IMG/VR virus record: IMGVR_UViG_3300042865_000182
Location: 43,395-107,394 of that record
From: a virus
Direction: 5' to 3' (one strand)
Length of the DNA: 64,000 nt
Part shown: in pieces, positions 17,701 through 44,733 of the stretch
Numbering within the stretch: the stretch's first letter is position 1
Layout: the number at the start of each line of letters is the position of its first letter
Translations under genes and position numbers: made by a program
The notes under the pieces: generated by a model
Database searches by the model: none
What the model saw: the letters and a program-made list of their open reading frames with translations, nothing else
Told to the model about the DNA's origin: nothing

Positions 17701-20700
17701 AATGCATTTGCAGAATTTAAAAATACAGGAGTAATACCTACTGAATTTTTTGATAATGTTAATAAAAGAGTAATTAAAAAAGGTAGTCCACTATATGAAC
17801 AAGTAGCTAATAGATTTCAAGGTTTAGCAGTTATGCAACAAATACTTGAAGCTAATAAACCAACAAGTGAAAAACAAAAAGAAGAACTAGCTAGACTAGA
17901 TGCAGAAGAAGCTGCTGCAATTGCAAGATTACCTAAAGTTTCTACTAAATTAGTTGTAAGAAATATAGATAATAAAGAAGATTTTAGCTTAAGAGTTGTA
18001 AATGATCAATTATCTGAAGGTCAGAGTGTTGATGTTACTTATGAAGAAGATAGTGAACAAAAATCTGCTGTATTTTATAAAGATGCAAATGGTGTATTAA
18101 GATATGATAATGAGCAAGGTGAGCCTGTTGATCTTAAGTTAAGTGTTAAATTTAATAGTGGACAAATTTTTGAAATACAAAATAGGCCAACAGATGAAGA
18201 TGTTGCAGAAGTAAAAAAACAATATGATGCATTAAGAGCTGAGGCAGCAGAAAAGTTCATTGATGAAGGTATAAAACCATTTACAGCTGAAGATATAGCT
18301 GAGTTAGATGCAATAAATGCTGATACACCAGTAGAAGCAATGCCTGCTGATTTAAAACAACAACTTGTTGATGCTTATGATGATTACAGAGAAAGACCTG
18401 AGAATAAAAACATGTTTCCAGCATCTCTTACTGAAGAAGATTTACAAAATAAATTTGAAATATTTATTAAATCTGAACCAGAAGCATTAGAGATTATTGA
18501 GAAATATGTAAAAGATAAAAAGTTAGAAGCTGCAACAACACCAGCAGGAGAAGTAATAGTTCCTAAAATTACTCTTCCTAATGGAGAAGTTATATCTGCA
18601 GATGAGGCAACTGATGCTATATTAGATGCAACACTACAAAGATATAGAATGCTGATTGCTGAGTTAAGTTCAAAAGGAGATGAAATGACAGATGATGAAA
18701 GAAAGAACTTAGCTATCTATAAAAGCAAAGCCAACATACTTTCTGGATATATTGAAAACAAAAGGATTGGTGAGATGAGTCCTGAACTTAAAGCAGCCAA
18801 AGCTAAAATTGATTTGCTTTTAAAAGAACAAGATAAAATCAAGAAACTAAAAACAGGCTATGATGTAGAAGGAGAGATACTCAGAAGAGTAAGTAATGTA
18901 ATTGAAGTTCTTAAAGATAAGAAATATGAGTATCCAAGAATGCAGGATATCAGAGTTATCTTTAATATGACAATTGGAGCTGGTGGAACAGTATCTGACT
19001 TCATGACTCAATTAAAGAATGCCAAGCTTCCAGGATTTAGTGAAGATACATATGACGCACTTGAAGAAGATATAAAAGAGTTTATGACTCTTACCAGTAT
19101 AACTGATCAAGATGTACTTAAACTTCAACTTGAAGGACTAAAAGAAGATCTTAAAGTAGAAGAAGGTGAGTTTGGTAATCCGGAAAGAGCTCTTGAAATA
19201 AGAAATCAGATAGCTATTCTTGAGAAACAAGTTAAACAAGAAGCTCCTACCACTAATCAAGCTGACATAGAAGCTAAGAGAGCTGAAGGAACTAATGTTA
19301 GAGGTACTACTTATAAAGGAGAAACTACTGAAAAAGATGGATTAAAAGTTACTGAGTATTCTGAGTTTAGACCTGATGGAAAAAGAATTTCTAAAGGTGG
19401 TAGAATAATGTTACCTGCAGAATTTATAGAAGAGTATAATATAACTGATCAAGATTATTTAGATAGTCTTGAAGGAGCTGCAGAAATAAGAGTATATCAA
19501 GTAAGAGTAGGAAAAGATGGTAAATCAAGTATAAGCATACAAGGAACTTTTCCAGAAGGAAATGTAGAAATGGAAGTTGGGGGTAAAGAATCAATTGCAT
19601 CAACTACAACTCCTGTTGCTGATATAGAAAAAAGAACTACAAAAATAATATCTTCAGAAACTGTAGAAAAAGGAAATAAAAAAGGAGAAACAAGAACAGT
19701 AACACAAACTAATTCTGTAGAAGATTTACAGGGTACAACAGTAAGTGTGACAGAGTATGAAGCAAAAGTTGGAGATACTACAGTTACTCTAGGAGGTAGG
19801 AAAATGACTTTTAAAGAGTTTAAAGAAGAATTTCCACTAGATGAGGATTATGAAGAAATACTTGGAGATTGGCCAGATTTAAATGATGATACAATAATTA
19901 CAGTAAGAAAAGTAAAAAGAACTCCGAGTAGTTCAAGGTTTAAAACTGTTGTAACTATTGTTAGCCCTGTATTAGGGGATAAAATGGATGTAATAATTAA
20001 ACAAGATGATGCTAAATATGATGCAGAACTAGATGCTTTAGAAGGACCTGCTAATCAAGCTGAGATAAATGCTAAGAAAGCTGAGTTAAATAAATTAAAA
20101 GAAACTAAAGAAAACCTATCACATCCATATGATAAATTAACAACTGCTGCAGAAAAAGCAAACTGGATTGAGAAAAATACTAGAGTAGTTAGAAGTGCTT
20201 TTAAAACTGATGAAGAGTATATTAATTATTATGAAACTAATAGAAATAAATTTATTAATGCAATAGCTCAAGGAAAATCTAAAGTTGATGCAATGTTAGC
20301 AATAGATTCAATTAATGTTGAGTACTACAGTAATCCTAAAAATGAAAAAGCATTAAATGAAGATTATGCTAATGTGTTGCGCAGTTATGCTGTTCCGTTA
20401 GCTTTAACAAGTGAACAAAAAGCATATACTAGTACTGGTAAAATTGTTTCTTTATTAGATGGTGTTAATATTAAAATTGATGAATTAACTAAAGAAATAG
20501 CTGAATTAGAAAAAGCAACTACTGCACCTGCTGTTGAAGCTTCTGTAAGTTATGAAGATCTAGTAGCTAAATCAAGAAGTGAGGTTGGTGTTATTGGACC
20601 TAACTTGTCTTTTATATTCTTTGGTAATTTACAGAATGCTATTAAAAATGGTCAGGTAAGATCTAAAGAAGAATTAAATAAAATCATAGCTGACTGGAAT

Positions 20701-22191
20701 GATTCTGCTGGATACCAAGGTTATCCTAATGAGATGAGTGATGCTCAGTCTAATATGTTATTACAACTTTCTGCAGGATTACCGGATGTTACTCCAGCTG
20801 CAGTTAAAAAAGCTGAGCAAACTCCAGATACACTTTTACAAAATGTAGAAGGAGCAGTAACAGAAAGAACCTACAATGAAGAGACAGATGCGGGAACATA
20901 TATAGATGATTTATCTAAAGATTTCCTTGAAGGTAAAAAACCTAAGTTTGAACCAGAAAAAATAAGTGAAGAAGCTTATGAAAATCTGTTTGGTGAAAAT
21001 GGTTTATTTCAAATCATGAAACAGTGGATGGATACTAATAAGTTAATCATAGTTTCTAGAGGTCTTGTTGTTTATGATAAAGATGCAAATGTTGCCGGGG
21101 AGATTGACTACTTACTATCTGATGGTAAGAACTTCTATATAGTAGATTTAAAAACCGGTAAAAAAGATAAGTGGGATAAGTATAATGATCCAAAGAGTGA
21201 GTACTATGGTAGTAAGATATCCAACACATTGCAACAAGCTTCTTATGTAAACTTGTTATATAATATGATTGGTATCAAAGCTATTCCAAAAATATTACCG
21301 GTAGAATTAGAACTTAACAGAAGTAATGGTAAGATATTAAAAGCATCAAGACCAAGTTCTCCTAATGCTCTTAAAGTTGGTAAGATACTTATTGATTTAC
21401 CTATTTCTCCAGAAATACAAGCAAAAATAGATGAGTTGATTCCATTAAGATCCACTCCATCAATAAGCTCAGTGCCTCTTTCTCTAAGTGTATCTAACAT
21501 TGTAAATAAAGCTGAGGGAGAACAAGTAGAGCCTACTGATTATGAAGAAGGTAGTGATGTACCAACAGGAACTCCAACTGATGCTTCTGCAAAAGTTAAA
21601 GAGTATGAGGATAAAATAAACAAGGCTGAAGATACAGATAAGTTAGACTTTATTGAACTTCAACTTGGTATGAACTCAGTAGACATGACAGCTGATGATA
21701 TTTTCCAAGTGCAGCAAATGATAGAACAGAGAAGGAATATACTTCTTTCAGGGGGGAAAGTTGTAACGCAAGAAAAATCTTGGAGTACTGGAAACCAAGT
21801 TTATAGTGAAAGTACTATATTTGTAGACAAAGGTAAGAATAGAGGTGAAGTATTTTTGGAGCCGTTTGAAACAGCAATTATTAGTAGTATTGATCCAGTT
21901 AAAGGTACAGTCACAATAAAACCTTATGGTAAGAAAAATCAAAAGACAATTTCCATTGATATGTTAAATAAAATGTTTAAATTAAATAGTGACTTGTTTA
22001 CTGGAGAAGAAGCACCTGCAGCTGAACCAGCTGGTAAAGATCTTCAAAATTTATCTAAAGAGTCTACTGATGTTGTATCAACATTACTTAATGATACTAC
22101 AGAACAGGCTAGATTAGAAAGTGAAGTTTCAGATGAGAGTATTACAGTAGATAAGACAGTTGATGATTTGTTAGATGATTTAGAATGTTAA
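14773..22191 (+). CDS. Giant virion ejection protein 1 with PD-(D/E)XK nuclease domain and inserted domain cassettes
   Basis: 2472 aa. Gly/Ala hydrophobic segments in the N-terminal part. Nuclease motifs AGEIDYLL (~21094), YIVDLKTG (~21145) and QxxxY. First of the three giant genes typical of crAss-like phages. Confidence 0.7.
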   Translation: MPENIPLSNRLLSSAGINPYEQQQSNKVEPPPFLQNDISKQLNGNVQKPLTDEEYVAERGMKWLGRSLGRQDRNAQMTPYTYNAGAGSNSFYKTYRAFGQKTFDEVGFSPFKNNDEAFNAQTSFLDRFSRTIVHGFAPLFARGFVSGPKSMARMLQGDFGDDPEDARKYAEAAAIAQDTSGGVGAFFNNSLMNFGYSAAIITEAIAEELALSAMGGIGGAANLPRFFAKLGKAASGVKGFSTVVDTAAGLGKSIKSLTNVNKAREFFNAAKIEAGLETRLGKFANFFNPAENLLETGLDIAKNTKQLKGWQRFNNATFKTAGALYRDVRNINMALSEARLEGGFARNDTFDQLFNDYRSKHNGQLPSEEMRNAMMKEANEASKHSLLANTLLIYASNKITFGNVVNPKSGLSRVISKRVAEVQKMAGRTTIREFTKRTLASGKELLTPKLSTVKGIWATAKKQGVQKAVKGVIGYTKANLMEGAQEVLQEVIADTAKNYHLQAFYSQPVGEYMYTKAQLDAMKEKGFSGILGEAFEKQRSWQGLETFASGFVMGAFASPLNRALPFAQEKYMQIFKNEQYKANKDIIDNYVNRMTKSVNDTFAKNPIEFYNSRIFGLGTQTELANVIDGGDAKSSRDGKDEATIKSITDLIKMDSLNIWTDYMESLKELTTEEYAEAVGISVEEAQGHTEKLDKVINRAKEIEKTYNQYNKKFPNPIDLNDYEKGTKEYEKAEIYHTAWEEGKKNVIFYHENYKDTLTRMQSIFQSIAEEKLLGKIDPNRVQALFKDDKLAGEIQILESEVEGLRGMTDPVSKRKFKETERTLGVLKEYQQDYENFMDHFFESGMVEEVDTEGKVVRTELDNQVINKLESSFKSYMKALAKQSDDIILDDSIDDAFEKLIDYYKLGREANKLSDTVNMLNNPEGFMDHIEKTYDWMYEMWNNREEYIRDNINKQLETLKFNQLLNDMAAVGVYVDLNAFAEFKNTGVIPTEFFDNVNKRVIKKGSPLYEQVANRFQGLAVMQQILEANKPTSEKQKEELARLDAEEAAAIARLPKVSTKLVVRNIDNKEDFSLRVVNDQLSEGQSVDVTYEEDSEQKSAVFYKDANGVLRYDNEQGEPVDLKLSVKFNSGQIFEIQNRPTDEDVAEVKKQYDALRAEAAEKFIDEGIKPFTAEDIAELDAINADTPVEAMPADLKQQLVDAYDDYRERPENKNMFPASLTEEDLQNKFEIFIKSEPEALEIIEKYVKDKKLEAATTPAGEVIVPKITLPNGEVISADEATDAILDATLQRYRMLIAELSSKGDEMTDDERKNLAIYKSKANILSGYIENKRIGEMSPELKAAKAKIDLLLKEQDKIKKLKTGYDVEGEILRRVSNVIEVLKDKKYEYPRMQDIRVIFNMTIGAGGTVSDFMTQLKNAKLPGFSEDTYDALEEDIKEFMTLTSITDQDVLKLQLEGLKEDLKVEEGEFGNPERALEIRNQIAILEKQVKQEAPTTNQADIEAKRAEGTNVRGTTYKGETTEKDGLKVTEYSEFRPDGKRISKGGRIMLPAEFIEEYNITDQDYLDSLEGAAEIRVYQVRVGKDGKSSISIQGTFPEGNVEMEVGGKESIASTTTPVADIEKRTTKIISSETVEKGNKKGETRTVTQTNSVEDLQGTTVSVTEYEAKVGDTTVTLGGRKMTFKEFKEEFPLDEDYEEILGDWPDLNDDTIITVRKVKRTPSSSRFKTVVTIVSPVLGDKMDVIIKQDDAKYDAELDALEGPANQAEINAKKAELNKLKETKENLSHPYDKLTTAAEKANWIEKNTRVVRSAFKTDEEYINYYETNRNKFINAIAQGKSKVDAMLAIDSINVEYYSNPKNEKALNEDYANVLRSYAVPLALTSEQKAYTSTGKIVSLLDGVNIKIDELTKEIAELEKATTAPAVEASVSYEDLVAKSRSEVGVIGPNLSFIFFGNLQNAIKNGQVRSKEELNKIIADWNDSAGYQGYPNEMSDAQSNMLLQLSAGLPDVTPAAVKKAEQTPDTLLQNVEGAVTERTYNEETDAGTYIDDLSKDFLEGKKPKFEPEKISEEAYENLFGENGLFQIMKQWMDTNKLIIVSRGLVVYDKDANVAGEIDYLLSDGKNFYIVDLKTGKKDKWDKYNDPKSEYYGSKISNTLQQASYVNLLYNMIGIKAIPKILPVELELNRSNGKILKASRPSSPNALKVGKILIDLPISPEIQAKIDELIPLRSTPSISSVPLSLSVSNIVNKAEGEQVEPTDYEEGSDVPTGTPTDASAKVKEYEDKINKAEDTDKLDFIELQLGMNSVDMTADDIFQVQQMIEQRRNILLSGGKVVTQEKSWSTGNQVYSESTIFVDKGKNRGEVFLEPFETAIISSIDPVKGTVTIKPYGKKNQKTISIDMLNKMFKLNSDLFTGEEAPAAEPAGKDLQNLSKESTDVVSTLLNDTTEQARLESEVSDESITVDKTVDDLLDDLEC

Positions 22192-22195
22192 TACT

Positions 22196-25100
22196 ATGAA
22201 AATTACTTGTGCCTTAAGCCAGAGTCAATCTGAAAAATTATATAAAACCATATACAAATCTTTAACTGAAGCACTAAAAGCTGAAAAACCATTCAGTGCT
22301 CAAGAGTATATGGCTAATCTTTTTGACAAGATTGCAGATAAAAAAGATGAAGATACCGCAGTTAAATTCTTGCAACAAGTCCCATCTATCATAAGAACAA
22401 TAGCTGCCAAACCAGCTTTTGATAGCTTAGATATAAAGCTAGATCCTATCAAAGAGTTGAGTCTTAAGTTTAAAGATGAGACTGAAGGTTTTAATGAAGT
22501 ACAAAAGTATTTCAAACCACAAGTATCACAAAGAGCTAAGTTAGCTTTAATAAGAGCTAACCAGAATAATGCATTGCTTGCAGAACAAGTAGACCCACCA
22601 ACTGAAGTAAAAGATCCGGTGAGACTTAGACCTTTTAGTTCTAATGTGTCTACTATGCAGTTATTAATACCAATTAATCCTAAGGATAAAGACAAGCTTC
22701 TTAAAGAAGAAAATGACCCGGCTAAAAAAAGAATATTTTCTGCAATAGAGACAATCAAGAAAGAAGCTGTATTAAGTGACTCAACTGATGTATTATCACC
22801 TATATCTTTTCAAGGTAAGACATTAAAGTTAAAACCAATTCTATTAACAGAGTTAAGAGAAACACATGAGAATCAAATAGATAAAACTACTTTGTCTGAA
22901 GTTATAAGAGCTGGTGCTATTAAATCACAAGGAACAAATAAAGAAGGTGTTGAAGGATTAAACAGAATAGCACTTGTTATTACAGATGAAAGTGGTAACT
23001 ATCTATACTTCAATGAAGAAGGTGAAATGGTTACTGAAGAAGAAGGTGGTGGTATTGTATATCAATTTATGCGGGATGTAAGAACTGATAATGGTGTATA
23101 CAGATTAACCAATATGTATGGTTCTGAAACTAGTGTTAAGACCCCTGCAGATATTGCAGAACAAATGGGTATCACAGAAGAAGCAGCTAGAAAATTACAA
23201 CAAGAAGAGTTCAAAGACTTATATAAAGTTAAAGAAGCTACATTAAAAGGTAACGGCCCGTTGTTATATTTAACTGGTTTGACTCCAGGAGTAAAACAAA
23301 GTGCTACTCAAAAAAATATTACACTACAGAATTTAAGAAGTCTTCCTTTTGTAACTAATGCAACTTTTAAAACCATAACTCCAAAAATGATTTATGGCAC
23401 TAAAGAAATTGCAACAATTACATTAAATGGACAAGAGTATAATTTAGATAGACCTAACTTACCTATTGAGTTTGCTAATGGTGAAAGACAACCGAGCCAA
23501 TTAATTAGAAAAATTGCAGCAGCATTAGCAAATCCAAACATATCAAATCAAGAAAAATATGAGTATGTGTCACAATTTTTATCTGATAAAGCATCAGAAT
23601 ATACAAGAAGACACACACTAAGTTATGATGAAGCTACTGATACTTTAGTTTTTGGGTATAATGAGAAAACATATAAAGAGGGTAGTGGACAGAAATTATC
23701 TTTTATAAATGAAGAACTAACAGGTAAAGAAAGCATAATAGAAGATGTTCTACTTAATGCTGCTTCAGATGATAGAGGTAACATGTATAGTGCTAAAATG
23801 ACTTATAATGCAAAAGCACTAAATGATAACCGCTACCGGGATTATGACATGGAGACTAATACTATTAGTGATGAGTTTACTCCTTACATACCATTCTTAG
23901 AAACATTACCAAATTCAAAGGTAAAAATTAGTGAAGAGAATGCTCCAGAGTTTTATAACTCACATATAAACTTCAGCATACCAGATGAGTTTACAAAAGA
24001 AATAGAAGCAGATTTTAAAAATCCAGATCCTATTAATGTTTCAGAAACTCCAGTAGAACCTTTTGAAGACATACAAGCTAAAATAGCTGAAATAGAAACA
24101 TTAGAAAAAGAAAAACAAGAACTTTTAAAAACTCAAAAAACTTATAAAGATTTACTCAATCAAAAATGGCCAATATCAAAATACTTAAAAAAACCAGTAG
24201 ATGGTAAATTTGATGTAGTTTCTGCTACTACTACTTCAGATTTTAATTTTAAGTTTAAAGAATATGGAAAAGATTACTTTTTTGAGATTGCTTCTGCTGG
24301 CTTAAATGCTTTTGAATATAAAGTCATAAGTGATAAAATCTCACAAACTACAGCTTTAAGTAATATTGATGAGATTATAAAACCAGTAACTACTGAATTA
24401 AATAGTCCAAAAGATGGTGATAATATAGTAACCATTAAACCAGGTGTTTTAAAAAAAGAAGGTAATGAATATATTGTTGTAACACCTGCTGAAGTTTTAT
24501 ATGTAAAATCTGAAGAATTAAATGAGCCTGTTGAAAAGGTTGATACAACAGAAATAGATTCTAGAATTGCTAAAGCTAAACAAGAACTAGCTGCTTTAGA
24601 ACAACCTGTTGGTGATAAACAAGCTCAGATAGATGAGATAGAAAAAAGGAGAGAAAAAGCATTATTTACTCCTTGGGTATTACAAAAAAATACAACAGAT
24701 GTTGTTATATTAAATAAAAGAGAAAGAGGTAAACAGATTATTGATGCGGCAGTTAAGTCTGGTAATTCTAATCTTATTTTAAAATTAATTGACTTAACAT
24801 CAGAAGGTAGAAGTGCAGAAACAATCTCAAAGGAAACTGGTTTTAATGAAGATCAGGTAAGGGAAATAAGAGAATATTTAGGAGCTTTAACACCAGGAGG
24901 TTTTGGTATAAGTGGTGCAGAAACTGAAAATGAACAAGAAGATCTTGAAAGATTTAATGCTTGGAAACAAAGTATAAAAGAGATCAATGCTAAAGCTAAA
25001 GAAGAACTAGATGCTTTAGAGCAAGCTCCTGTAGAACAAAAATGGGAATGGCCTCCAATTACACAGGATGATTCAATAAACAATGCAACAGCACCAGATA

Positions 25101-31100: not shown

Positions 31101-32443
31101 CAAATGAGTCTATTCTTGGGACATTTTATGATAATGAAATTATAACACAGTTGATAGAACCATTATTCCCACTAAAGAATAATCCAACTGTAACTAAAGC
31201 TATCATAACATTATTAACTAAGAAAGCTTCAGAAGTAAAAAATATATTTGGTTATGGGGATGACGGTAAAAGAATGTTTATTAGTCAATATAAAAATGGA
31301 TTAGTAAATTATCTTTTCCAGAATGCCATGTATAATTATACTAGGTCTGATAATAATTTATTAGATATTCCATCAGAGCTTATTGATAAATACTTTACTG
31401 GTGATGTCTTCTTCCAAAACTTAGATTACTCTTTTGCTGATGATATTCTTACTCTTATAGAACAGAACCCAAGCTTAAAAGAAAAATATAATATACTGTA
31501 TCAATTAGCTAAACCAGAATTAAAAGAGGGTCAACAGATACTTACATTGAATGACAATAAGCTTTTAAAGAGTGGTGCATTGGCTGAAAGCTATTATACT
31601 AACTTGAAAGAACTTGCGGATCCCAATGTTAAAAAATCATCTGATCCAGAAAAGAATCTTTACATAAGCAATATGTTCAAGCTGCTTCCATTGATGGCAA
31701 TATATCAGAATGGAGTAGGCTTTAGTAAGTATGGGTTTAATGAAGCATTACCATTTGATGACTTCTTAGCTATAATGCAACCAGTCTCTGCAGACTTTAT
31801 AGATAACAAGAATAAAAACACTGAGTTATTAAATGTATTCAATGGTATAAAAGAACCTAAGAATAGATTCTTCAGAAACTTTGTACAAATAAGACCAGAA
31901 GATGTAGTGATAAGAACTGAAGCTCCAATACAAACTCCAGGAAAAACAATAACTTATACACCAAAAGGACAGAAAACTCAGACTTATACAATCAGAGGAA
32001 ATCAAATCTTTAATAGTGCTGAGTTAGAAGTATTTAAAGGAGATAGTGTAGATAGAAACAAAATCTTTGCAAATCTTGCAGTATCTGAAGGCCGAGCAGT
32101 TGTTGTAGAGCACAACGGATCTAAATATGTGGTGAACAATAGAAATCAAATTATATCTGGAGACACTGGTAAAATGATGCAATGGCCAGAAAACAATGGT
32201 GATAGAGTTGCAATACTTAAAAAAGCTGAAGCTAAATTTAAACCAACTGAATTAGATGTTACAAGTGATACTGTTAAAGAAGCAGAAGAAACACCAACAC
32301 CTGCTGCATCTAACATAAATGCAAGAACTTTTGTATTAAATAGTACAGAATTCCAGTCTTGGATTAAGGGTGAATTATCAAAAAACCCTAACTTAGATGT
32401 CAATAAAGCATTAGATTATTATATTAAATGTAAAGGGTTATGA
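22196..32443 (+). CDS. Virion-packaged two-barrel DNA-dependent RNA polymerase with N-terminal zincin domain
   Basis: 3415 aa. Catalytic GADFDVDK (29792..29806) preceded by RIPVQG, plus DGQGWI and AVDVEKD blocks as in crAss-like/phi14:2 gp66-type RNAP. HEAWH (25361..25375) with downstream EEYLAE. Confidence 0.9.
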   Translation: MKITCALSQSQSEKLYKTIYKSLTEALKAEKPFSAQEYMANLFDKIADKKDEDTAVKFLQQVPSIIRTIAAKPAFDSLDIKLDPIKELSLKFKDETEGFNEVQKYFKPQVSQRAKLALIRANQNNALLAEQVDPPTEVKDPVRLRPFSSNVSTMQLLIPINPKDKDKLLKEENDPAKKRIFSAIETIKKEAVLSDSTDVLSPISFQGKTLKLKPILLTELRETHENQIDKTTLSEVIRAGAIKSQGTNKEGVEGLNRIALVITDESGNYLYFNEEGEMVTEEEGGGIVYQFMRDVRTDNGVYRLTNMYGSETSVKTPADIAEQMGITEEAARKLQQEEFKDLYKVKEATLKGNGPLLYLTGLTPGVKQSATQKNITLQNLRSLPFVTNATFKTITPKMIYGTKEIATITLNGQEYNLDRPNLPIEFANGERQPSQLIRKIAAALANPNISNQEKYEYVSQFLSDKASEYTRRHTLSYDEATDTLVFGYNEKTYKEGSGQKLSFINEELTGKESIIEDVLLNAASDDRGNMYSAKMTYNAKALNDNRYRDYDMETNTISDEFTPYIPFLETLPNSKVKISEENAPEFYNSHINFSIPDEFTKEIEADFKNPDPINVSETPVEPFEDIQAKIAEIETLEKEKQELLKTQKTYKDLLNQKWPISKYLKKPVDGKFDVVSATTTSDFNFKFKEYGKDYFFEIASAGLNAFEYKVISDKISQTTALSNIDEIIKPVTTELNSPKDGDNIVTIKPGVLKKEGNEYIVVTPAEVLYVKSEELNEPVEKVDTTEIDSRIAKAKQELAALEQPVGDKQAQIDEIEKRREKALFTPWVLQKNTTDVVILNKRERGKQIIDAAVKSGNSNLILKLIDLTSEGRSAETISKETGFNEDQVREIREYLGALTPGGFGISGAETENEQEDLERFNAWKQSIKEINAKAKEELDALEQAPVEQKWEWPPITQDDSINNATAPDNTTDPTDDFSDFMFRKGADLNGVTEEQIKAAEEWWNSSPLSKYLDFKTMVNIVNSDVYARFIGYASVLNGKYGGIEISRTGSMVDVYHEAWHAFSQIFLTKEQREKLYKEIAKQPGTFTLLDGTTVAFKDANYLQLEEYLAEDFRSYGIDQSTKKGQPTRNTLFRKILNFIRDLFSSRSTKDRLFKELYFAKSNPKFLKKYSPNIDTTSFKQLNRGVVSLTDPTIDALNRQDAELISNSIDSYISEIIDAAANARGNKSGSISMLLGDKNKQAFYTRVRKDFETKLANARTSYEAIQNDPEKAMDAAKLLNKIRIFQAALDNFGDAKGGLVKYHLENTTFNLLRQKYIEVEEEVETETPVENNVEDSISQTSTPEESQPESVIKDSKIGKKSLLDLASKETVYILKSLHKLENGKPVYNELGYKELANFTQSWNNLMRAVNGEKNPEKIYENIKQAGLEVYPEFKQLLNSKLPKPSEIIKADNVNDKISQNKLLTNFWQDVQKTRVTYLQTTIFENGIAEVTKASIETASLANKFEAKFKGDLTNDYVVRSTENNIPMLNMDKIVEDFGKDGVLITDKSFQFARAIGLYLDDLRMIKNELKKDQRSIQEYGLPYIYKTISDINKASKKQNLSSEGIEAITAFRLNPIRELMKGIPESVLGKEVSQKNKIDKILGLQAKYGVDSSNFAVLNAERNLVFEHIEDHSVSMIVFALNKATNMKELWTEGSEFEYLSYLNPKINSFTNRSQTINSLFDIASDMEKRVGRSLQLFVNSGTQLENGDGTNTTSLDAHGKFLQELHSMLKGGVQEFMRHASKSSSFGARVEGGVIGGVGKGSDTRLWVDLDKFALGTANNYLTKTHMIPYIAAELERINKFKSNKDLFKKYAGYNRPMPDGTMAGENFTAFDNVLTKETKDEILEKVTDPNMRLEDYLKTDPELAKKIANDVDAYFEFQTNDLLDFYEEAEYMSPDLLERLRLFNLSEDEATKVLMKAYAVNAWVHNFEMGNLFYGDLVQYNHEKEELHKRNTGSTSGGLKFRTDAAIKALLTDINSKVSYAATLPGMETLTYTGKFNTAILQDIERNSVYVKQIEEALRKDYEERFANSKMPKDKIQAEIDRRVQKEVAKYKGMEEGDGQGWITFDAYRSLKMASGQWSDVQEELFKKVINNEPVKASDIVEMFPAYKLQNYGHLADTALPVMAMHKFALAPMIPTMIKGSDLENLHMQMMKNNIQYVTFQTGSKVGSVTSEVNSKGKAVADKIYADEGQKSLLSSIKFTPNTIYLEYLKDVTQVPTSFKGKTVFATQLRKLILSNLYDRGILDKHSGLVKDYENTVDEYGNLLKMELLNDIGYEYKDGKYIGNFTEFLKVIQAELNRRDLPEHHVEFVNANPDNSLKTDLSLHLKSDDIEKILVALMEKRLVRQKIKGEALVQVSSAMTNGLWDNQVKFDKANEDEVRKFMGSNNLPFYNPTADGTSAMKVAIALQGDFVNLLNAKHNDGEPIGTRERLNEMIKDDKWMAENGKSVSLSAVRIPVQGLNSMEYMQVWEFLDPAAGNIIIPPSEIVAKSGADFDVDKLTTFMPAISKDGKFIESELDNEAIKRLISDNKETPEGKAMISRVISQQKAALENKLITSINNILRLPENYAALVRPNDTYLLKDDVADVLEDKVTDYNRFNNYHGEPQRPGAKAKRSISPTRTLEPLYNLHKHDANMIGKAVLGLVAIYNALHPIYNSLDAKMPKQYLDTYYDKGLGKYVEGKNPISSRMFMPHNKTAEGNISLSDIYTADGVDLISDLYSQLINGAVDVEKDAWIFFIQGNMELAPMLLTMFKAGVPREYAIKFLSQPMIREYAKELRLLGGSYADLVADPLEDTKTGKNKRAAISVLERFGVINAPSYLKSDLKTHMALSALTKKSGVLNEEGQFDVALLDKMLEEDVSTDTYKNQQLAVFLHFLEMQNQFSGFQDLLRLSNPDTTTSKTTQEILLRKTLLNDIMKNSKVDPSLVSKLTNESILGTFYDNEIITQLIEPLFPLKNNPTVTKAIITLLTKKASEVKNIFGYGDDGKRMFISQYKNGLVNYLFQNAMYNYTRSDNNLLDIPSELIDKYFTGDVFFQNLDYSFADDILTLIEQNPSLKEKYNILYQLAKPELKEGQQILTLNDNKLLKSGALAESYYTNLKELADPNVKKSSDPEKNLYISNMFKLLPLMAIYQNGVGFSKYGFNEALPFDDFLAIMQPVSADFIDNKNKNTELLNVFNGIKEPKNRFFRNFVQIRPEDVVIRTEAPIQTPGKTITYTPKGQKTQTYTIRGNQIFNSAELEVFKGDSVDRNKIFANLAVSEGRAVVVEHNGSKYVVNNRNQIISGDTGKMMQWPENNGDRVAILKKAEAKFKPTELDVTSDTVKEAEETPTPAASNINARTFVLNSTEFQSWIKGELSKNPNLDVNKALDYYIKCKGL

Positions 32444-35400
32444 GTAAGTGTTTAAATGTACGTGACAGAAATGTTGCTAGGCTTATTAAAGATTTTGGTG
32501 AAACTACAGTGTCTCAATTAGTTGAGTCATATTTTGGTGATGAAGTCCCAACTTATGATGAGTTTATAGCAAACAAAGATGTTAAAGAACAGCTTAATAT
32601 AATTCCTATATCTAAAGTAAAAAATGAAATTGGAACTAGTTTCTCAAAACAATTAAGCACTGACAGAATAATACAACTAAAACAAGCTATCTCAAAGGCT
32701 AACAATAAAAATTACAAAGCGGGTAATCCTGAAGTGTATATGCTTGTTAATTACCAAAGAGTTGGTGAAGCAGATTTATATACATGGGGTCTTAGAAAAG
32801 TTGCGGGAACTCTTGATGTGGAAGCTAAGATAGAAAGAGCTAAAGCAATGGTAAGAGAAAGCATTACTCCTGTTAGTGATCTAGAGAAAATGATAGAAAA
32901 TGATCAGCATTTTCTACCGGAAGAAGACTTTGAAATAGGTGATGAGCAATTAGAGAATGAGAGACAAGCATTAGAGATATTAAAACAAGATGCTGAAAGA
33001 GCTGGGCTTGACTATGATGACAGATATCTTTATGAAGAAAGAGATGAGATGGTTACACCTCAACCTGTTTCCGGAATCTTTGACAGACTAAAAGACAAGT
33101 TACAACAACTTTACCCTGCTATTACACTTGATATAAGTAACAACCCAGTATGGGAAAAAGGAACACAGATATTAAACCAGCAAGAGTATAATAATGAAGT
33201 TGCTTTTAGAATTAAAACTGTAGACTTACTTACCTCAAGAAAAGCTGATGAAGTATTTGCAAAAGGTCTTAAGAATAAATGGCCTTTGGATAAAATGCTT
33301 ACTGAGCTTCAGGTACCTAAACAACAGAAACAACTTATAGATAGTGTACTAAAAGACATGCCTTACTTTGAAGGTATACCTTTTAATGCTCAAATAGCTT
33401 ATGCTATTGCTGATACTTATACTTATACTCTTGAGATTAATACTGCTACAGAAGATAAAAGACAATGGGGAGATTATTTTGATAATGATCAACCTTTTGA
33501 TAATGAAAGGTTTATTTTAAATGATTCAAGATACTCAGTTAATTATGATGAAAATACTTTTTATGGTTATTTAAAAGATGGTTTAGAAATTACTAAAGAA
33601 GAATTTGATAATGCTCAAAAAGAAGCATTTGTAAAATATAAAGCTAATGAAAACACAATTAGACCAACTTCATATTATGATAACCTAACAGTTCCTGGTG
33701 GTACTAACTATACAGAGAATGAAATAGCAACACCTGGTATAACCCCAAACATTAAAGGACATGCTCAGTTTGCTACAAAAAATGGTATAGGTTGGTTTAG
33801 AAGTGATAATAAAGTAGATGGAACTTCTTTAGGACTAACATCTGCTCAATTAGCTAATATGCCAGAAGAAGACATTGCTAAGTTTACTGATAATACTAAA
33901 ACCCGCAGAATACTAGAAGTACAATCTGATTTATTCCAGAAAGGTAGAGATAGAGAAGATTTAACTAATCAAGAATTTCCAGATGATAATGACTATGAAT
34001 ATGCTTATGCAGAAAGTTTTGAGGAAGCAGAAGAACTTGAAGCAGAAGGTTGGGAAAAATTTGGGTCTACAGAAGATGGTGGTATACAATATATAAGACT
34101 TAAATCAGATGCTGTTTTAAAAAATAAAAAAGAAAGACAAACCTCATCAAATCAATTTCTACAACTCTTAAACAAAGACAACAACTGGGTAAACTTCTTT
34201 GTTAAATCTATCATACAAGATAGTGCTAAGAAAGGTTATGAGAAAGTATTGTTTCCTAAAGGTGATACAGCTAGTAAAGTTGAAGGGCATGAAACTTTAG
34301 AAAATTATAAGAGAGAAAAGCTAAAAAGGATTGAATTTTTAGAAGATAATAAAGAAATATTAAGTAATACTAAACCTTACAAGATAGGAGATTATTTTGA
34401 TAGAGATGTTGAAAATTTACCAGAAAATGAAAGAGTTAACTATAATAAAGTAGAAACTCAAGAAGAAGTAGATTTACTAAATGAAGAACTATCTACAGAA
34501 GGTATAGATAATGAAATTAATCAACTTAAAAAAGAACTTGCAGATATTGAAGGTCCTCAAGGATTTGGTGCTTTAAGACCTATCTATAACTTTTATGAAA
34601 ATACTGTATCTAATGTTCTTAAAAAACAAGGTTATACTCCGGAAGTAATTACTGATGAGTATGGTAATCAGTGGAATCAAGTTACTGTAAATCAAGTAAG
34701 AGACTTACAAAATATATTACTCCAAAGAAATGAGGCTGACAGAATTATAGGACAAGCTAATATAAAAGCTATGTCTGTACTTCTTGATGCAGTAAATCAA
34801 AAAGAAGATACACTTCCTCATGAATATGCTCATCACTATATTGCATGGTTTAGAAATACTCCATTAGTGCAAGAAGCTATAAGCAAATGGGGTAGTGAGG
34901 AAGCTTTAGTACAATCTATTGGAGAACAAGCTGTTGCTCAAAAAGGTGAAGCTTGGGGCTGGTGGAAAAAGTTTACAGAATGGGTAATGAGTTTATTTGA
35001 TAACTTATCTACCAAAGATAAACAAGAACTAACTAATATACTTACTGATGCATTCTTACAGGGTGTAGATTTACAGACCGGTAAAATTGGTATATCTGCA
35101 GAAAGAAGCCGTGAGCTAGCTGCACAAGCATCTGGTATTTTTAATCAGACCATAGAAGGTTCATTTGATGAACAGATACAAAATATACCAGGAGAATATA
35201 GCCAGCAAGCTATAGATACTGAGTTAGATAGAAGAATTGAGTCTCAGAGACAAATGGATACAGAAGAAGCTTCTGTTGATGATACCTTGAACCAACTTGA
35301 TCCAGATAATCAAAAAACAATTTTAACAGCTACAGCATTTGCTGAAAAATTAGCTGATGCAATTGGAGCAGATTATAAATTTGTATCTGAAGCAGAGGCT

Positions 35401-38400: not shown

Positions 38401-40764
38401 AAACCATCTAATGAAAACTCATATCAAACAACCACATTGATGAATCCAGTAACAGGAGAGTATCAAAAGTATATGGGTGTTCCTGCTGGAAAATATGGTA
38501 AGAGTGTGATTAAAAATGAGTTCTTAACAATACCAAGAGGGGCTAACTGGGATCAGTATGTAGGTAAATATATTGATAACAGAGGAAACTTTTTACCACG
38601 GGAATATAAACCTGGAGATAGAAATACAGCATATGATAACAAGTATATAAATGAAAAGTATATTGAGTTAGAACGATCAAACAGTGCTGAGTTTCAACTA
38701 CTTAAGACTATATCTGAAGAGTTTATTAAACTGCAAGAAGGTAAAGCTGTAAACAGTAGACTTTATCTTGATTTACCTAGATTTAGAAAAAGAAGTAATC
38801 TTGAGTTTGTACAGTCAGGTGAAACTAAAGAAAACATAATTGAAAAAATTGGTGGGTTTAAAGGTTTATGGAAAACATGGTTTGGTAAAGCTCCAGATGA
38901 TGTTGAGTATGGATTTAACTTTGATGCTGGTAGCACTCTTGTATCAACAGATTTAGAAGGGAATCCTATAACTAAAATACCAGTAAGAGGTACATATAAC
39001 TTAGATTCTAAAATGGTATCTAAAGATGTATTAAGAAGTATGTATGAGTATTTACTTTCTCTAAATGAGCAACAAATACTTATGGAAAATGAACCTGTGG
39101 CAGATGCATTACTGAGTGTACTTACAAATAATCCAATTAAAGATCTTGAAAAATTAAATAAAGGTGAATTTAAACTTACAGGTAAAAGAAAGTATACTCC
39201 AAAAGATGAGAATAGAAGACAGCAAGCCGTTAAGTATCTAATTGATAAAGTATTTTATGGGAAAAGTACTTCTTCTTTTGAAGAAGAAAATCCTAGAACA
39301 GCAAAAATCTTCCAAGGAATGTTTAGAAGATCATCAAGAGCATTCATTGCTTTTGATCCACAGTCTGCTATTAAAAACCGTTGGGGACAACTATATCAAA
39401 ATTCTATTCTTGCTGCAGGAGGTAGATTTGTTACACCAGTTTCATTAGCAAAAGGTAAATTAAAAGCAAAACAATCTGCTACTTATTGGGTGTTTAAAGA
39501 TGTATATGAAAAAGGTATTAAAACACCTGATATTCAGTTAGTTGAAAGATTTGACCCTGCTCTAAGAACGCATGAGGAATTTGGTAAATCATCATCAAGA
39601 TCTGTATTTAAGGATCTTTCAGATATGACATATGCATTTGACTTTAGAAGGACTATGGAACTTGAAGCTTCTATGGAGTTATTCTGGGGTGTGATGTATA
39701 ATAAATATGTAGATCAAAATGGTGAGTCTATTCCATATGCAGAAGCTTGGACATCAGATGAGGATGGAAAGTTGATACTTAAAGAAGGTATTGATCCTAA
39801 TTATTCATTTGATGAAGTATTTCATTCATTTAAGTTAGGTGAAACTTTAGAAAGTATAGCTAAAAAATATAATATATCTGTTGAAGCTCTTAAATATAGA
39901 TCTGGTATTGAATCTGTCTCAAATTTAATACCAGGAGAAGAAATAAGAGTGGGTGATGCTTCAGAGTTTAAAAGAATGAAGTTAATGCTACAAGGTGTAA
40001 ATAAAAAAGTAACTGGTTCACTAGATAAATTTGATACACCACAAGCAGAAAAGTATCTATTATATAGAGCATTCACATTCTATAAAAGATTTGCTACAGG
40101 AATGTTCCTTGATAAATATCAAATGGATACAACAGCTGGAAATAAAGGAGGTTATGTCTATAACTGGGATACGCAAACACTTGAAAAAGGATATTATATT
40201 CAAGCATTTCAAGCTATTTATAAGTTAATAAAAAGTATTGGTAGAGATTGGGCTATTCTTACTCCTCAAGAAAAAGTTGCAATGACAAGAGTGCTGGCAG
40301 AGGGTGTGTTATTATTCTTACTTGGAATGATAGTAGGTTCTTGGTGGTTTGATTGGGATCCAGAAGATTCAGATAGGTATAAACAAATGAAAAGAGATAA
40401 TGCAACTTGGTCAGGTTATTTTGGCAATCATTTAATGTACTTATTAATTACTACAAAATCTGAAAATGAGGCATTTTTACCTTTAATAGGTATTAAAGAT
40501 CAAATGTCATACTTTGGAACTACAACTATTGCAACCGCAAATACAATAGATATGTATATTAAAATTATGTTTGATTTGTGGAACATAGCTACAGATAATC
40601 CTGATGCTATATATTCTAAACAAGATCAAGGCCCATATTTCTGGCAGAAAAAAGGAAGGTATAAACTATGGAATCATATTGGTAGCATGTATGGTATTAA
40701 AGGTAAAAATAAAGATGCTATGTGGGCAGTTAAGAAATTTGAACAATATGAAGCAACTAAATAA
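32440..40764 (+). CDS. Giant virion ejection protein 3: two zincin HExxH domains, EVQSD domain, LysM, C-terminal TM segment
   Basis: 2774 aa. HEYAH (34819), HEFAH (35509), RILEVQSDLFQ (33916), LysM-like FHSFKLGETLESIAKKYNISVEAL...LIPGEEIRV (39820..39951), hydrophobic VLAEGVLLFLLGMIVGSWWF. Confidence 0.7.
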   Translation: MSKCLNVRDRNVARLIKDFGETTVSQLVESYFGDEVPTYDEFIANKDVKEQLNIIPISKVKNEIGTSFSKQLSTDRIIQLKQAISKANNKNYKAGNPEVYMLVNYQRVGEADLYTWGLRKVAGTLDVEAKIERAKAMVRESITPVSDLEKMIENDQHFLPEEDFEIGDEQLENERQALEILKQDAERAGLDYDDRYLYEERDEMVTPQPVSGIFDRLKDKLQQLYPAITLDISNNPVWEKGTQILNQQEYNNEVAFRIKTVDLLTSRKADEVFAKGLKNKWPLDKMLTELQVPKQQKQLIDSVLKDMPYFEGIPFNAQIAYAIADTYTYTLEINTATEDKRQWGDYFDNDQPFDNERFILNDSRYSVNYDENTFYGYLKDGLEITKEEFDNAQKEAFVKYKANENTIRPTSYYDNLTVPGGTNYTENEIATPGITPNIKGHAQFATKNGIGWFRSDNKVDGTSLGLTSAQLANMPEEDIAKFTDNTKTRRILEVQSDLFQKGRDREDLTNQEFPDDNDYEYAYAESFEEAEELEAEGWEKFGSTEDGGIQYIRLKSDAVLKNKKERQTSSNQFLQLLNKDNNWVNFFVKSIIQDSAKKGYEKVLFPKGDTASKVEGHETLENYKREKLKRIEFLEDNKEILSNTKPYKIGDYFDRDVENLPENERVNYNKVETQEEVDLLNEELSTEGIDNEINQLKKELADIEGPQGFGALRPIYNFYENTVSNVLKKQGYTPEVITDEYGNQWNQVTVNQVRDLQNILLQRNEADRIIGQANIKAMSVLLDAVNQKEDTLPHEYAHHYIAWFRNTPLVQEAISKWGSEEALVQSIGEQAVAQKGEAWGWWKKFTEWVMSLFDNLSTKDKQELTNILTDAFLQGVDLQTGKIGISAERSRELAAQASGIFNQTIEGSFDEQIQNIPGEYSQQAIDTELDRRIESQRQMDTEEASVDDTLNQLDPDNQKTILTATAFAEKLADAIGADYKFVSEAEAEAILANSPTPYGGQSGFYHANTVYLVKGRLSLDTVLHEFAHPLVKGILKDNPKLFNNLYAALASTPEGQDIIERVRQEYPNLEEGSDRFKEEAIVTSLEIKAASKVNDNSPFGKFIKNLMFAIKKVLRNMFSTKNGNAINLNKLSEKTTLNQLAEMLANPEFKVMNMELIPSDIAEFKNEITAKIEELKNVPKDKLQETIDRIYTDTLNQLNTLKQAPFKVKQELLSAKGTKILAYIREELEKYQTVNVRPQDVDPENVINAIADYETEMRLRSLALINSLNELKVFTDSIKNILDDLKNSKDKNTNANISKVVYYKGFLKSQLRMLEDLKDIPDLDRDGEFFRKINSIGDSIRDAEKKIYDIEFNFISEFFNNETDLMASAVENTFRDRVTLLLKAEGIEESEIEKFIEKVVNNPDGTEMTVKDIELPISSRRAKYIVDAAKEYYFKRLGRQQIEEYLRGERGDLGFFTAWITPYSNMDDPITGGFVKFIKEKMNDAMMRSQNQANDITLKLLPLLNAVGYNPARTNQLGDMLLFTDKVGFTNNNGVYEEKDVLTFINKFKNYRADRARLQNDFDLAKSKKDQVKMKEAYDALEAFDEKYMHRKFTKEYYDIQKIWKTGAVVKNPFTGEEVTVGAKVAFDSFLERQELLNKMNTLKNVHFLELEDLYELGDSEEQTKLEYNRLFDIYNLDGKPKTGEELERVLLRKKHRELSRNMYDYSPDTDRLQKDLDNFHQKLLARNINPEDAPAEGETMNKYQKEMDRFFRKNLKTAYTSDYYKSRQQIFEDIRKITEKAGVKSKVALELSELYKERYRLANSTADANGQPNGLNFTANQIDLLRDIENKIVALEESYNKKTGLTKEETARLQSYMNKVAIKVALTPEENQDFMTLYKTKNEMGLTELEMQTLNSKFAELAALSVKEPTDYYIEAFNYALRNTGLPEITVENADTWINSDYLTQALAKDKDFAQWYTRNHVEKQIYVKGEGMANKNFRLNVWTITKPSNENSYQTTTLMNPVTGEYQKYMGVPAGKYGKSVIKNEFLTIPRGANWDQYVGKYIDNRGNFLPREYKPGDRNTAYDNKYINEKYIELERSNSAEFQLLKTISEEFIKLQEGKAVNSRLYLDLPRFRKRSNLEFVQSGETKENIIEKIGGFKGLWKTWFGKAPDDVEYGFNFDAGSTLVSTDLEGNPITKIPVRGTYNLDSKMVSKDVLRSMYEYLLSLNEQQILMENEPVADALLSVLTNNPIKDLEKLNKGEFKLTGKRKYTPKDENRRQQAVKYLIDKVFYGKSTSSFEEENPRTAKIFQGMFRRSSRAFIAFDPQSAIKNRWGQLYQNSILAAGGRFVTPVSLAKGKLKAKQSATYWVFKDVYEKGIKTPDIQLVERFDPALRTHEEFGKSSSRSVFKDLSDMTYAFDFRRTMELEASMELFWGVMYNKYVDQNGESIPYAEAWTSDEDGKLILKEGIDPNYSFDEVFHSFKLGETLESIAKKYNISVEALKYRSGIESVSNLIPGEEIRVGDASEFKRMKLMLQGVNKKVTGSLDKFDTPQAEKYLLYRAFTFYKRFATGMFLDKYQMDTTAGNKGGYVYNWDTQTLEKGYYIQAFQAIYKLIKSIGRDWAILTPQEKVAMTRVLAEGVLLFLLGMIVGSWWFDWDPEDSDRYKQMKRDNATWSGYFGNHLMYLLITTKSENEAFLPLIGIKDQMSYFGTTTIATANTIDMYIKIMFDLWNIATDNPDAIYSKQDQGPYFWQKKGRYKLWNHIGSMYGIKGKNKDAMWAVKKFEQYEATK

Positions 40765-42819: not shown

Positions 42820-44733
42820 TTAAAATAAACTTAATTGATTTACATTTGGTTCTAAACCTTCTATTTCTTTCTTAATATTCTCAAGATAATATTTGTAATT
42901 AATCTCATACTCATCAAAGTCCATATCATCTATGTGGTTGATATAAATTTGCTGGAGCCATTTGCCGGCCTCAATATTTATCTCCCTACCATCAGAGTTA
43001 TTAATCTTCATGATCTTAGATCCCGTATTACATACATAATATCTTAGAGTGTGTTGTAGTTCTTTTTCCCTATACACACCATTTACAATAGATCTTTCTA
43101 CATATTTCCAATCACCCTTAATCTTCTTGCCTCCACAGTAATCAAAGATATTTCTGTTGGACTTGAGATAATCCTCAGGCTGGATACCTTCTACAAAATA
43201 TGCATGCAAAGTTTTAGGTATAACTAAAAAACTTTTATTCTTGTGCAGAGCCAAGTCAGCATACTCAAATCTACCTTTGCATTTAGACTTACCATCTTCA
43301 GTAACAGCAATGTAATTATTTACATCACCTAGTACTAGTTTACTATATGTATCATGTTCTAGTTGTAGACTAGTCATCTTCTCCCATATCTTGCAAATCT
43401 CCATATACTTGTCCATCTGGTCCCTTGGAATCATAGTTTCCAAACCATCTGTATTTTGCATTAGTGGAATTGCACCCGGGATACCTTCACAAATCATCTC
43501 ATACAACATAGTAAGACTAAGCTGACCATTAATAGTAATCTTCATAGTAAACTCAGGATCATACAGGAAACTGTTCTCATCATTGCTGAGACCATAAGTT
43601 GAATTTAAAATAATCTTATATACATAGTTCTTTGGGTCCTTTTTGGGTATAACCTTTCTCTCATCAAAGAACCATTCATACTGAGTACAAAACTCTTCTT
43701 GTGGTAAATGTGCCGGAGCCCATCTATTTCTAATAGCTAGATTAGGGTAAAAACTTGTAACATCTGAAGTCATGATAACCATGTCTTCTGTTGCATTATA
43801 TACCCTACTTGCTCTAGCACCATGAATACCACCAAGACCATAGTCTGTTTTAACTCCCTTATACTGTACAGAATACTTAAATCCACCTTTTGTTTCACCA
43901 GTGTGGATAACCACATCCTGGAACTTTTTAAGGAGATGTTGAAATGTTGCTGTCTCAAAGCTTATATAAGGTAGTATGATATCTTTTACAACAATCTGCT
44001 CCCTCTTAGTTCTCATCTGACGGAGATCATACTTCTTGATACCAGTTTGTTTACTAAGGAAATGTAGAAACAACTCTTTAGCTATCCTTGGTTCAGAGGC
44101 TGAGAATAAATCAATACCATATTCTTCAGTAAGTGCTCTTCTTAACTCAATCTGACCCTTACTCAAACTCATGATTTGCTTAGTAGACCGGACATCATTA
44201 ATACAATAACCTACAATAGATGCTATTTGACCTTCTGTAACTTCAGTATAGTGTGGAATAGGCATATCTTTTATGTTCTTCCAATCCATTGTATACTGAA
44301 TCCACTTCAGGCTTGATCTTTTAGCTGGGTTATCCCAGTGATTAAGCTTAAATACATCTATCTGTCTGATATGTAAGTCTCTAGAACCAAATTCAGCAAA
44401 CTCACCACCATTACTTCTTTGAATAGTAGCTTGTGCTTTCTGATAAATAAACCTAGCAATAGTCTCACCATCTTGTTCCAGTAACTGTTCTTTATTCCGG
44501 AGAATATGTTCAGTAATCTGACTGTCAAAAGCAAGACCATTAAAGCTAACATGCCATTCTTCAAGAGTTATATTTCTCTCAAGGAATGTTACCAGTTCTA
44601 GTATATCATTTTTTGATTTATGACAGATAAAAACTTCTCTGTGCTCAGACTTTACATCCTCAAAGACTCCCAAAAAACAATTGGATAAAGTCTCCCAGTC
44701 CATGACCCAGTGGGTCCTATTTATATTTCCCAT
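42820..44733 (-). CDS. polB: Family B DNA polymerase (crAss-like)
   Basis: ExoI DWET, ExoII FNGLAFD, ExoIII YCINDV; polymerase motifs DVTSFYPN, KIILNSTYG, NTDG. Confidence 0.92.
   Translation of the reverse strand: MGNINRTHWVMDWETLSNCFLGVFEDVKSEHREVFICHKSKNDILELVTFLERNITLEEWHVSFNGLAFDSQITEHILRNKEQLLEQDGETIARFIYQKAQATIQRSNGGEFAEFGSRDLHIRQIDVFKLNHWDNPAKRSSLKWIQYTMDWKNIKDMPIPHYTEVTEGQIASIVGYCINDVRSTKQIMSLSKGQIELRRALTEEYGIDLFSASEPRIAKELFLHFLSKQTGIKKYDLRQMRTKREQIVVKDIILPYISFETATFQHLLKKFQDVVIHTGETKGGFKYSVQYKGVKTDYGLGGIHGARASRVYNATEDMVIMTSDVTSFYPNLAIRNRWAPAHLPQEEFCTQYEWFFDERKVIPKKDPKNYVYKIILNSTYGLSNDENSFLYDPEFTMKITINGQLSLTMLYEMICEGIPGAIPLMQNTDGLETMIPRDQMDKYMEICKIWEKMTSLQLEHDTYSKLVLGDVNNYIAVTEDGKSKCKGRFEYADLALHKNKSFLVIPKTLHAYFVEGIQPEDYLKSNRNIFDYCGGKKIKGDWKYVERSIVNGVYREKELQHTLRYYVCNTGSKIMKINNSDGREINIEAGKWLQQIYINHIDDMDFDEYEINYKYYLENIKKEIEGLEPNVNQLSLF

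Follow-up and report, generated by a model that had tools for sequence, protein, structure and literature searches.

Polyvalent proteins of phages, among them virion RNA polymerases of the N4 type fused to effector domains, were described by Iyer, Burroughs, Anand, de Souza and Aravind in 2017 (PMC5512222). They are likewise giant, are co-delivered with the DNA and carry variable enzymatic and DNA-binding domains, and recombinational variability was raised for them by analogy with polymorphic toxins. CrAss-type polymerases, linkers and coiled coils lie outside the scope of that work, and it has no account of the opener/closer hairpin modelled here, of its fixation at the level of DNA, of defined hot spots or of exchange among three carrier genes. 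A second described system is the virion polymerase block of crAss-like phages, formed by gp65, gp66 and gp67 in phi14:2 and by gp47, gp49 and gp50 in crAss001, and the same block of three genes is found here. In those two phages the virion contains the three proteins, which are believed to be partly unfolded during ejection (PMC10172136; bioRxiv 10.1101/2020.03.07.982082); packaging and ejection of the giant proteins of the present phage are presumed from this literature, not from the phage itself. The gp66 protein of phi14:2 has 2180 amino acids, against 3415 in the present phage, and these papers on phi14:2 and crAss001 describe no cassette hot spots or joints, unlike what is seen here.

Short conserved in-frame motifs that flank variable segments are found in the 'His-box' recombination of T-even tail fibres, at the VENN motif of CdiA and as the demarcation motifs of Rhs proteins, where they are thought to supply homology for the swapping of segments. 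In those systems a receptor-binding or C-terminal toxin tip is swapped within one gene family, whereas at the present locus paired left and right motifs, which apparently form a stalk, bound internal, tandem cassettes in three unrelated carrier genes. A limited search of the literature returned no description of opener/closer joints, of hot spots in crAss-like phages or of cross-gene exchange. The polyvalent theme is known; the helical joint and the cross-gene exchange are added here.

The giant gene block and its polymerase

The window, a stretch of 64,000 nucleotides (positions 43,395 to 107,394 of IMG/VR record IMGVR_UViG_3300042865_000182), belongs to a crAss-like phage whose genome has 107,394 bp and 33% GC. 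Three giant open reading frames abut one another at positions 14773-40764, the arrangement of three adjacent giant genes that characterizes the gp66 family. These are protein 1 (P0002, 14773-22191, 2472 aa), the polymerase gene (P0001, 22196-32443, plus strand, 3415 aa) and protein 3 (P0003, 32440-40764, 2774 aa). By its homology and motifs the 3415-residue product is assigned as a gp66-type virion RNA polymerase. In tblastn it aligns along about 715 aa with g066 of Cellulophaga phage phi14:2 (NC_021806, annotated 'Catalytic RNA polymerase subunit'), with 22% of residues identical (E=3e-15), and also with many Crassvirales polymerases. It carries DFDVD at residue 2533 (nt 29792), which fits the catalytic motif DFDxD with I or V at position 4 (bioRxiv 10.1101/2020.03.07.982082). 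A phmmer search of the whole protein against PDB sequences gave nothing at an E-value of 1e-3 or better, and Pfam and PHROGs returned no family for the polymerase or for the two modules described below.

Like polyvalent proteins, the polymerase is a large multidomain protein, and diverse effector-type domains are combined in its relatives. Domains of the ART-PolyVal, NADAR, AlkB-like and AAA_33/Zeta-like types were found in them, with matches to PF13532, PF08719, PF13671/PF06414 and PF18760 and to helicase, RNase H and HD domains; in one rescanned protein PF18760 scored just below its cut-off (28.6 vs 31.2 bits). Polyvalent proteins are associated with zincin-like metallopeptidase domains; here HExxH motifs lie in the polymerase (residue 1056, nt 25361) and at two places in protein 3, but no peptidase profile of Pfam matched the giants. 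The relatives were recovered from lakes and sediments and from ocean samples of TARA.

Cassettes present, absent or replaced at hot spots

Residues 619-948 of the polymerase are bracketed by a TPVEP linker (24047-24061) and an APVEQ linker (25025-25039), which form the left and right edges of a region hereafter called hot spot 1; these linkers lie on the plus strand, as do the helices, cores, hot spots and array located below. The HExxH motif of the polymerase lies shortly downstream. An earlier note on this DNA had distinguished two modules in the region, and their peptides, DIQAKIAEIE...IAKAKQELAALEQ and QIDEIEKRRE...INAKAKEELDALEQ, are present as it quoted them, together with both flanks. 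Comparison with other phages gave a general layout of such cassettes: an opener (consensus DIEAKKADIERRR), a core, a closer (consensus INAKYDAELAALE), and then G or Q and a Pro/Thr-rich linker. The unit has a median length of 145 aa, and the cores are unrelated to one another and span about 70-170 aa. The AELAALE sequence of the closer is an ideal amphipathic heptad, and the same heptad is used in designed helix-loop-helix peptides.

The structures of both modules were predicted with AlphaFold2. In module 1 (mean pLDDT 83) a predicted opener helix (model residues 2-27, with a pLDDT of 89-95 over the block; polymerase residues 620-645, 24053-24130) leads into a beta-rich core (residues 646-784, 24131-24547), followed by a closer helix (model residues 167-184, 24548-24604) with the closer motif AKAKQELAALEQ at 24569-24604. 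Among near-identical relatives protein homology ends at residues 633-642, and the opener is conserved along with the module in P0124, P0127 and P0129. In module 2 (pLDDT 81) a predicted opener helix beginning AQIDEIEKRRE... (model residues 5-23; residues 805-823, 24608-24664) is followed by a core of four short helices (24701-24880) and by a closer helix (model residues 111-143; residues 911-943, 24926-25024) that ends in INAKAKEELDALEQ. A helix-turn-helix-like stretch had been proposed within module 2. The last two helices of the predicted core, AETISKETGFNEDQVREIREYLG (24815-24880), do provide two short helices there; the proposed resemblance is weakly supported, with the best MarR-type matches, at Z values of 5.6-6.8, falling within what is noise for helical models. 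The highest VIA score for module 2 was 6.8 (1s3j_B, rmsd 5.5, 106 residues aligned), and the other MarR-type entries, at 5.6-5.9, were interspersed with unrelated hairpins. Neither model was matched in the PDB by Foldseek at an E-value of 0.001 or better.

VIA matched both models mostly to contiguous hairpins of two helices, the alignments covering the first helix and the last, with rmsd values of 1.0-3 A. All 50 of the top 50 matches to module 1 were hairpins of this kind, aligned over model residues 1 to about 190; they were aligned at 50-65 residues and included fragments of SMC coiled coils and hinges, the dynein stalk and designed hairpins. For the core of module 1 no fold match was obtained past the stalk, hairpins being the only matches across VIA. 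These alignment ranges, obtained with models built on shallow alignments of 8 and 5 rows, suggest that the opener and closer run antiparallel to each other in a coiled-coil stalk that carries the core at its tip. An 'empty' allele would then be a bare hairpin.

The two modules are independent of each other. The 330-aa block was searched with phmmer against 1.84 billion representatives, and each of the ten matches was to one module only. When the modules were searched separately by phmmer and with HMMs, as the earlier note had proposed, they were found in different proteins and never together elsewhere: module 1 in P0004, P0124, P0125 and P0127-P0130, module 2 in P0035, P0067, P0123 and P0126. 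Apart from the polymerases P0004 and P0035, the carriers share nothing detectable with P0001 beyond the module. A search for a viral locus of P0124 found none, and searches of GenBank phages with the gene (megablast) and with the block (tblastn) returned nothing for hot spot 1.

Cassettes are also shared between genes and between positions. Module 2 occurs at 83% identity in the polymerase P0035, which is 37-49% identical overall, and at 84% identity in P0067, which is a homolog of protein 1 (its identity to P0002 is 28% across 985 aa and 26% across 491 aa) that carries it at a mid-protein hot spot. Module 1 occurs in P0127, a member of a protein-1-type family encoded upstream of a polymerase-like open reading frame in a distant crAss lineage; one of the neighbouring cassettes in P0127 recurs at 88% identity in L055, where the scaffold is otherwise dissimilar. 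The hot-spot-1 payload of L013 is 58-68% identical to payloads at a second polymerase hot spot in ten other polymerases, and a polymerase cassette of L058 is 61% identical to a cassette in the protein-1 homolog L075_849. The modules are thus not fixed to one gene and position, the outcome that would have spoken against the earlier proposal of a pool of payload domains exchangeable between the ejected giants; the proposal is supported by this sharing and by the synonymous fixation of the joints described below.

With residues 450-1150 of the polymerase as the query, 189 homologs were recovered. Relatives that are 96-99% identical on both sides do not share the whole 619-948 block. P0004 retains module 1 and has a different second payload of 204 aa, P0005 has a single unrelated payload of 100 aa, P0006 and P0007 have just 23-28 residues between opener and closer, as in a hairpin remnant, and P0009 and L001 have 9 residues at this site. 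Across 150 polymerase homologs the insert at hot spot 1 ranges from 0 to 456 aa. Hot spot 2, close to the C-terminus of the polymerase (residues 3241-3249, 31916-31942), is empty in this phage, and its insert in relatives ranges from 0 to 1092 aa. In the 96-99% identical relatives it holds an AlkB-like oxygenase (P0004), a NADAR domain (P0005), an AAA_33/Zeta-like kinase (P0007) or an uncharacterized segment of 95 aa (P0006). The payloads of the closest relatives at hot spot 2 are bounded by TQPT linkers, and the canonical closer is absent from hot-spot-2 payloads and from the second cassette of P0004, Pro/Thr/Gln linkers being found instead. Because the contents of both hot spots differ, five near-identical phages carry five different payload sets. 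The scans of the collection appear to leave out very near records.

Protein 1 carries an array of cassettes at residues ~1495-1921 (19255-20535), with a canonical opener ADIEAKRA from 19255, an internal closer DAKYDAELDALEGP at 20005-20052 and a final closer EIAELEK at 20494. L001 and L002 have protein-1 homologs that lack the array, although their flanks are 75-85% identical, and in L003 and L058 it is replaced by other cassettes. Its GC3 is 8.9%, compared with 13-19% in the rest of the gene, and the GC3 of the whole of module 1 (24050-24613) is 7.4%, compared with 18-19% in the rest of the polymerase gene (P=1e-5). The low GC3 of both segments fits a foreign origin. In protein 3 a degenerate closer-like motif, EINQLKKELADIEGPQ (KKELADIEGP), was found on the plus strand at 34513-34560, within a block (residues ~216-878 of P0003) that in other phages is found at the C-terminus of the polymerase.

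Fixation of the joints at the DNA level

The starting observation was one of DNA identity between cassette ends, and it was reproduced on re-reading the sequence: the closers at 24568-24604 and 24988-25024 match at 34 of 37 nt, 420 bp apart, and AGAACTAGATGCTTTAGA is present exactly at 20025-20042 in protein 1 and at 25003-25020 in the polymerase. A third copy with one mismatch lies at 24583-24600. Shuffled sequences are expected to give 0.01 matches, and none of 100 shuffles reached 3, so this identity is not due to chance. The pattern [AEKQ]EL.[AK]L[EK] was looked for in all open reading frames of at least 50 aa of the 107-kb genome and is confined to the giants, with two occurrences each in the polymerase and protein 1. 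Codons were identical at 9/10 positions (expected 5.1, P=0.01), 8/8 (P=0.002) and 7/8 (P=0.03) in the three pairwise comparisons among the three closers, which are not mutually independent and for which the codon usage of this genome, with some 4-5 identities expected, served as the baseline.

Identity of synonymous sites was then found to extend to other phages. In 19 non-identical closers from loci chosen by polymerase homology only, whose scaffolds are in part as little as about 30% identical, CTA encodes the first Leu in 16 of the 19 (background 11%, P=2e-13), the Ala before it by GCA in 13/14, the next Ala by GCT in 12/12 and the second Leu by TTA in 17/19; these statistics count the closers as independent, and recent shared ancestry is possible. 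Openers, in a sample partly made up of loci picked via the closer 21-mer, have ATA in 18/18 and in 18/20 cases at two positions (background 37%) and GCT in 21/21. The exact 21-mer GCAGAACTAGCTGCTTTAGAA, which encodes AELAALE and has a probability of about 0.4% for that peptide under the codon usage, was found in 114 IMG/VR contigs. Among the copies listed, 80/80 are in frame as AELAALE in long open reading frames, where they follow many unrelated payloads; they lie in 28 homologs of the polymerase, 25 of protein 1 and 1 of protein 3. Non-canonical copies in low-GC giants are 1-2 nt off, the closers of the present phage are 1-3 positions off the canonical 21-mer, and both of its polymerase openers are non-canonical. 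The motif follows the composition of the genome in phages that are very rich in AT, where CTA drifts to TTA. In a degenerate scan for DAELAALE, the high-GC matches among those listed were unrelated short open reading frames.

The synonymous sites of closers and openers are thereby fixed far beyond codon bias, and an explanation of the DNA identity by amino-acid constraint plus codon bias, which the earlier note had named as the outcome that would count against it, fails. DNA homology between the window and L058, a 71-82% identical relative and the only one against which breakpoints were mapped, breaks off and resumes at 19284 and 20493 in protein 1 and at 24040 and 24983 in the polymerase, that is, at openers and closers. 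The closer of protein 1 matches the polymerase closer of L058 at 32/33 nt, against this background of 71-82%. Hitch-hiking with one payload cannot explain the fixation of the joints, because the neighbouring payloads are unrelated. Either the joints are homogenised by continuing recombination within them or the DNA word is itself under selection; the data fit concerted evolution and direct selection on the joint DNA alike.

Probable recombination at the joints and its alternatives

The explanation favoured here is that residues 619-948 are one of several hot spots, spread over the three giant proteins, for exchangeable, optional cassettes, and that the stalk joints allow these to be swapped in frame; we consider this probable. 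Pairing of the opener and closer helices would bring both ends of a cassette together and make each cassette structurally self-contained, and with its ends adjacent a cassette could be inserted at a linker in whatever protein serves as host. The DNA of the helices, near letter-identical across very different phages, may in addition offer short stretches of homology in frame. Phages that infect the same cell, or different genes within one phage, could then recombine there, with gain, loss or replacement of cassettes, and crossovers at the joints would leave the reading frame unbroken. Recombination at the joints is the likely mechanism, as judged from the sequence comparisons, and homologous recombination over ~36-40 nt of in-frame identity is the route that we infer. 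Delivery of the payloads into the host, and a role for them in host takeover or counter-defence, are presumed.

A stronger version of this explanation would make the opener/closer pair a dedicated, evolved device for in-frame recombination, a 'protein-level integron' by which any payload could be placed into any of the three injected giants across the phage order, with words of ~40 nt acting both as crossover sites and as stalk codons, possibly together with a cognate nuclease or recombinase. This version is put forward tentatively and is on balance doubtful.

Alternatively, the closer (..AELAALE, then G/Q and a Pro/Thr linker) could be mainly a proteolytic site, at which a zincin-type peptidase or a maturation protease frees the payloads in the capsid or after injection. 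The motif is kept as a peptide in all three giants; the polymerase has an HExxH motif shortly downstream of hot spot 1, and protein 3 has two. A-x-E cleavage motifs occur for other phage proteases. Autoproteolytic release has been proposed for polyvalent proteins (Iyer et al. 2017, PMC5512222), and cleavage of crAss giant proteins was raised by Drobysheva et al. (bioRxiv 10.1101/2020.03.07.982082). Cleavage would account for the conservation of the peptide but not for the fixation of synonymous sites; moreover, the models place the motif in a long paired helix, a poor protease substrate, and Pfam detects no peptidase family in the giants. As the main function of the closer, cleavage is thus unlikely, although it is compatible with recombination at the joints and could act alongside it.

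The fixation at synonymous sites might instead reflect a dedicated site-specific system (a nuclease, a recombinase or a homing element) that reads the fixed DNA word and moves cassettes in the manner of an integron. In favour of such a system stand the extreme degree of the fixation, in which a single 21-mer recurs across 114 contigs and in three gene families and a rare codon is included, and the paired left and right motifs that flank each cassette. Near-identity over ~36-39 nt is, however, already sufficient for phage recombinases, the motif drifts from CTA to TTA in very AT-rich phages, and hot spot 2 uses other joints (TQPT), so that a system of this kind is improbable. A role in translation or at the RNA level, such as pausing on rare codons where domains meet as an aid to folding, would be unrelated to recombination; it draws on the rarity of the fixed Leu codon CTA (11%) and on the location of the motif at a domain boundary. 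The other fixed positions, however, are choices between two common codons (GCA/GCT, ATA/ATT), for which pausing gives no explanation, and the homology breakpoints coincide with the motifs, which makes such a role very unlikely. Both of these explanations are less likely than homologous recombination.

That a coiled-coil linker was merely duplicated in tandem within this one phage, with amino-acid constraint and AT-biased codons behind the similarity, could draw on the strong codon bias of a 33% GC genome and on the ideal amphipathic heptad, but it is dismissed as extremely improbable, given that the module cores are unrelated to one another, that near-identical relatives lack the modules or have others in their place, that the modules recur in other genes at 83-84% identity, and that a codon choice of ~0.4% probability recurs in 114 contigs. 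Duplication of whole modules in tandem was rejected separately, since blastp among the three giants showed no paralogy at the level of modules. Chance, codon bias and simple duplication are refuted by the differences among relatives in the block, the cross-gene occurrence of module 2, the codon fixation and the 21-mer in 114 contigs.

Exchange of cassettes by recombination at the joints, the probable explanation, bears on the biology of the Crassvirales, a group that is common in waters and to which the most abundant human gut phages belong, and for which little is known of the cargo of the injected giants or of its turnover. Strain-level relatives differ mainly by plug-in domains at a few defined sites, and the joints of these domains are conserved as DNA. 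The 21-mer and the opener word together provide a sequence handle with which the payload repertoire could be harvested from metagenomes. The joints would also represent a natural design for placing folded domains in a carrier protein that unfolds and refolds during ejection, and they offer a testable mechanism for the fast turnover of what are probably tools of host takeover or counter-defence.

Cassettes at polymerase hot spot 1 and an apparent fusion protein

At hot spot 1, the N-terminal insertion site of the virion RNA polymerase, the related locus L058 carries a cassette (cassette B, L058:9200-9600) containing a DGNHR-type motif, HFQDGNHRANLL, that is reminiscent of ParB/sulfiredoxin-like nucleases. 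Module 2, one of the two cassettes at this site in the present phage, also occurs in a homologous protein of 4620 amino acids, P0126. The N-terminal part of P0126 resembles protein 1 (23% over 791 aa) and appears to be fused to short regions resembling the polymerase, with module 2 lying between the two.

Joints and additional domains

Payloads at hot spot 2, the C-terminal site of the polymerase (window 31916-31942), are flanked on both sides by Pro/Thr/Gln linkers of the TQPT type instead of helices (relatives P0004-P0007 and P0030). Two opener-like stretches were observed in protein 1, NQADIEAKRAE (window 19253-19286) and NQAEINAKKAE (window 20051-20084), with 30 of 34 nucleotides identical. 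A short way downstream of the protein-1 cassette hot spot is a match to the PHROG exonuclease phrog_298 (E=1e-6; window 20857-21189, P0002 residues 2029-2139), and protein 3 contains a LysM domain (E=2e-5; window 39832-39951, P0003 residues 2465-2504). HExxH motifs are found in the polymerase (HEAWH, window 25361, P0001 residue 1056) and in protein 3 (HEYAH, window 34819, residue 794; HEFAH, window 35509, residue 1024). These are possibly zincin-type metallopeptidase sites, like those of phi14:2 gp65 and of polyvalent proteins, but neither the polymerase nor protein 3 matched a peptidase profile.

A large block of protein 3

A block of approximately 660 amino acids in protein 3 (window 33085-35073, P0003 residues about 216-878) is held, at 41-53% identity, by the polymerase C-terminal hot spot of L004, P0028, P0031, L059, L076, and L077. 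L004 and L005 lack this block in their versions of protein 3, and in the L001 version a different segment, similar in length, takes its place. Exchange between neighbouring giant genes thus extends to large blocks too.
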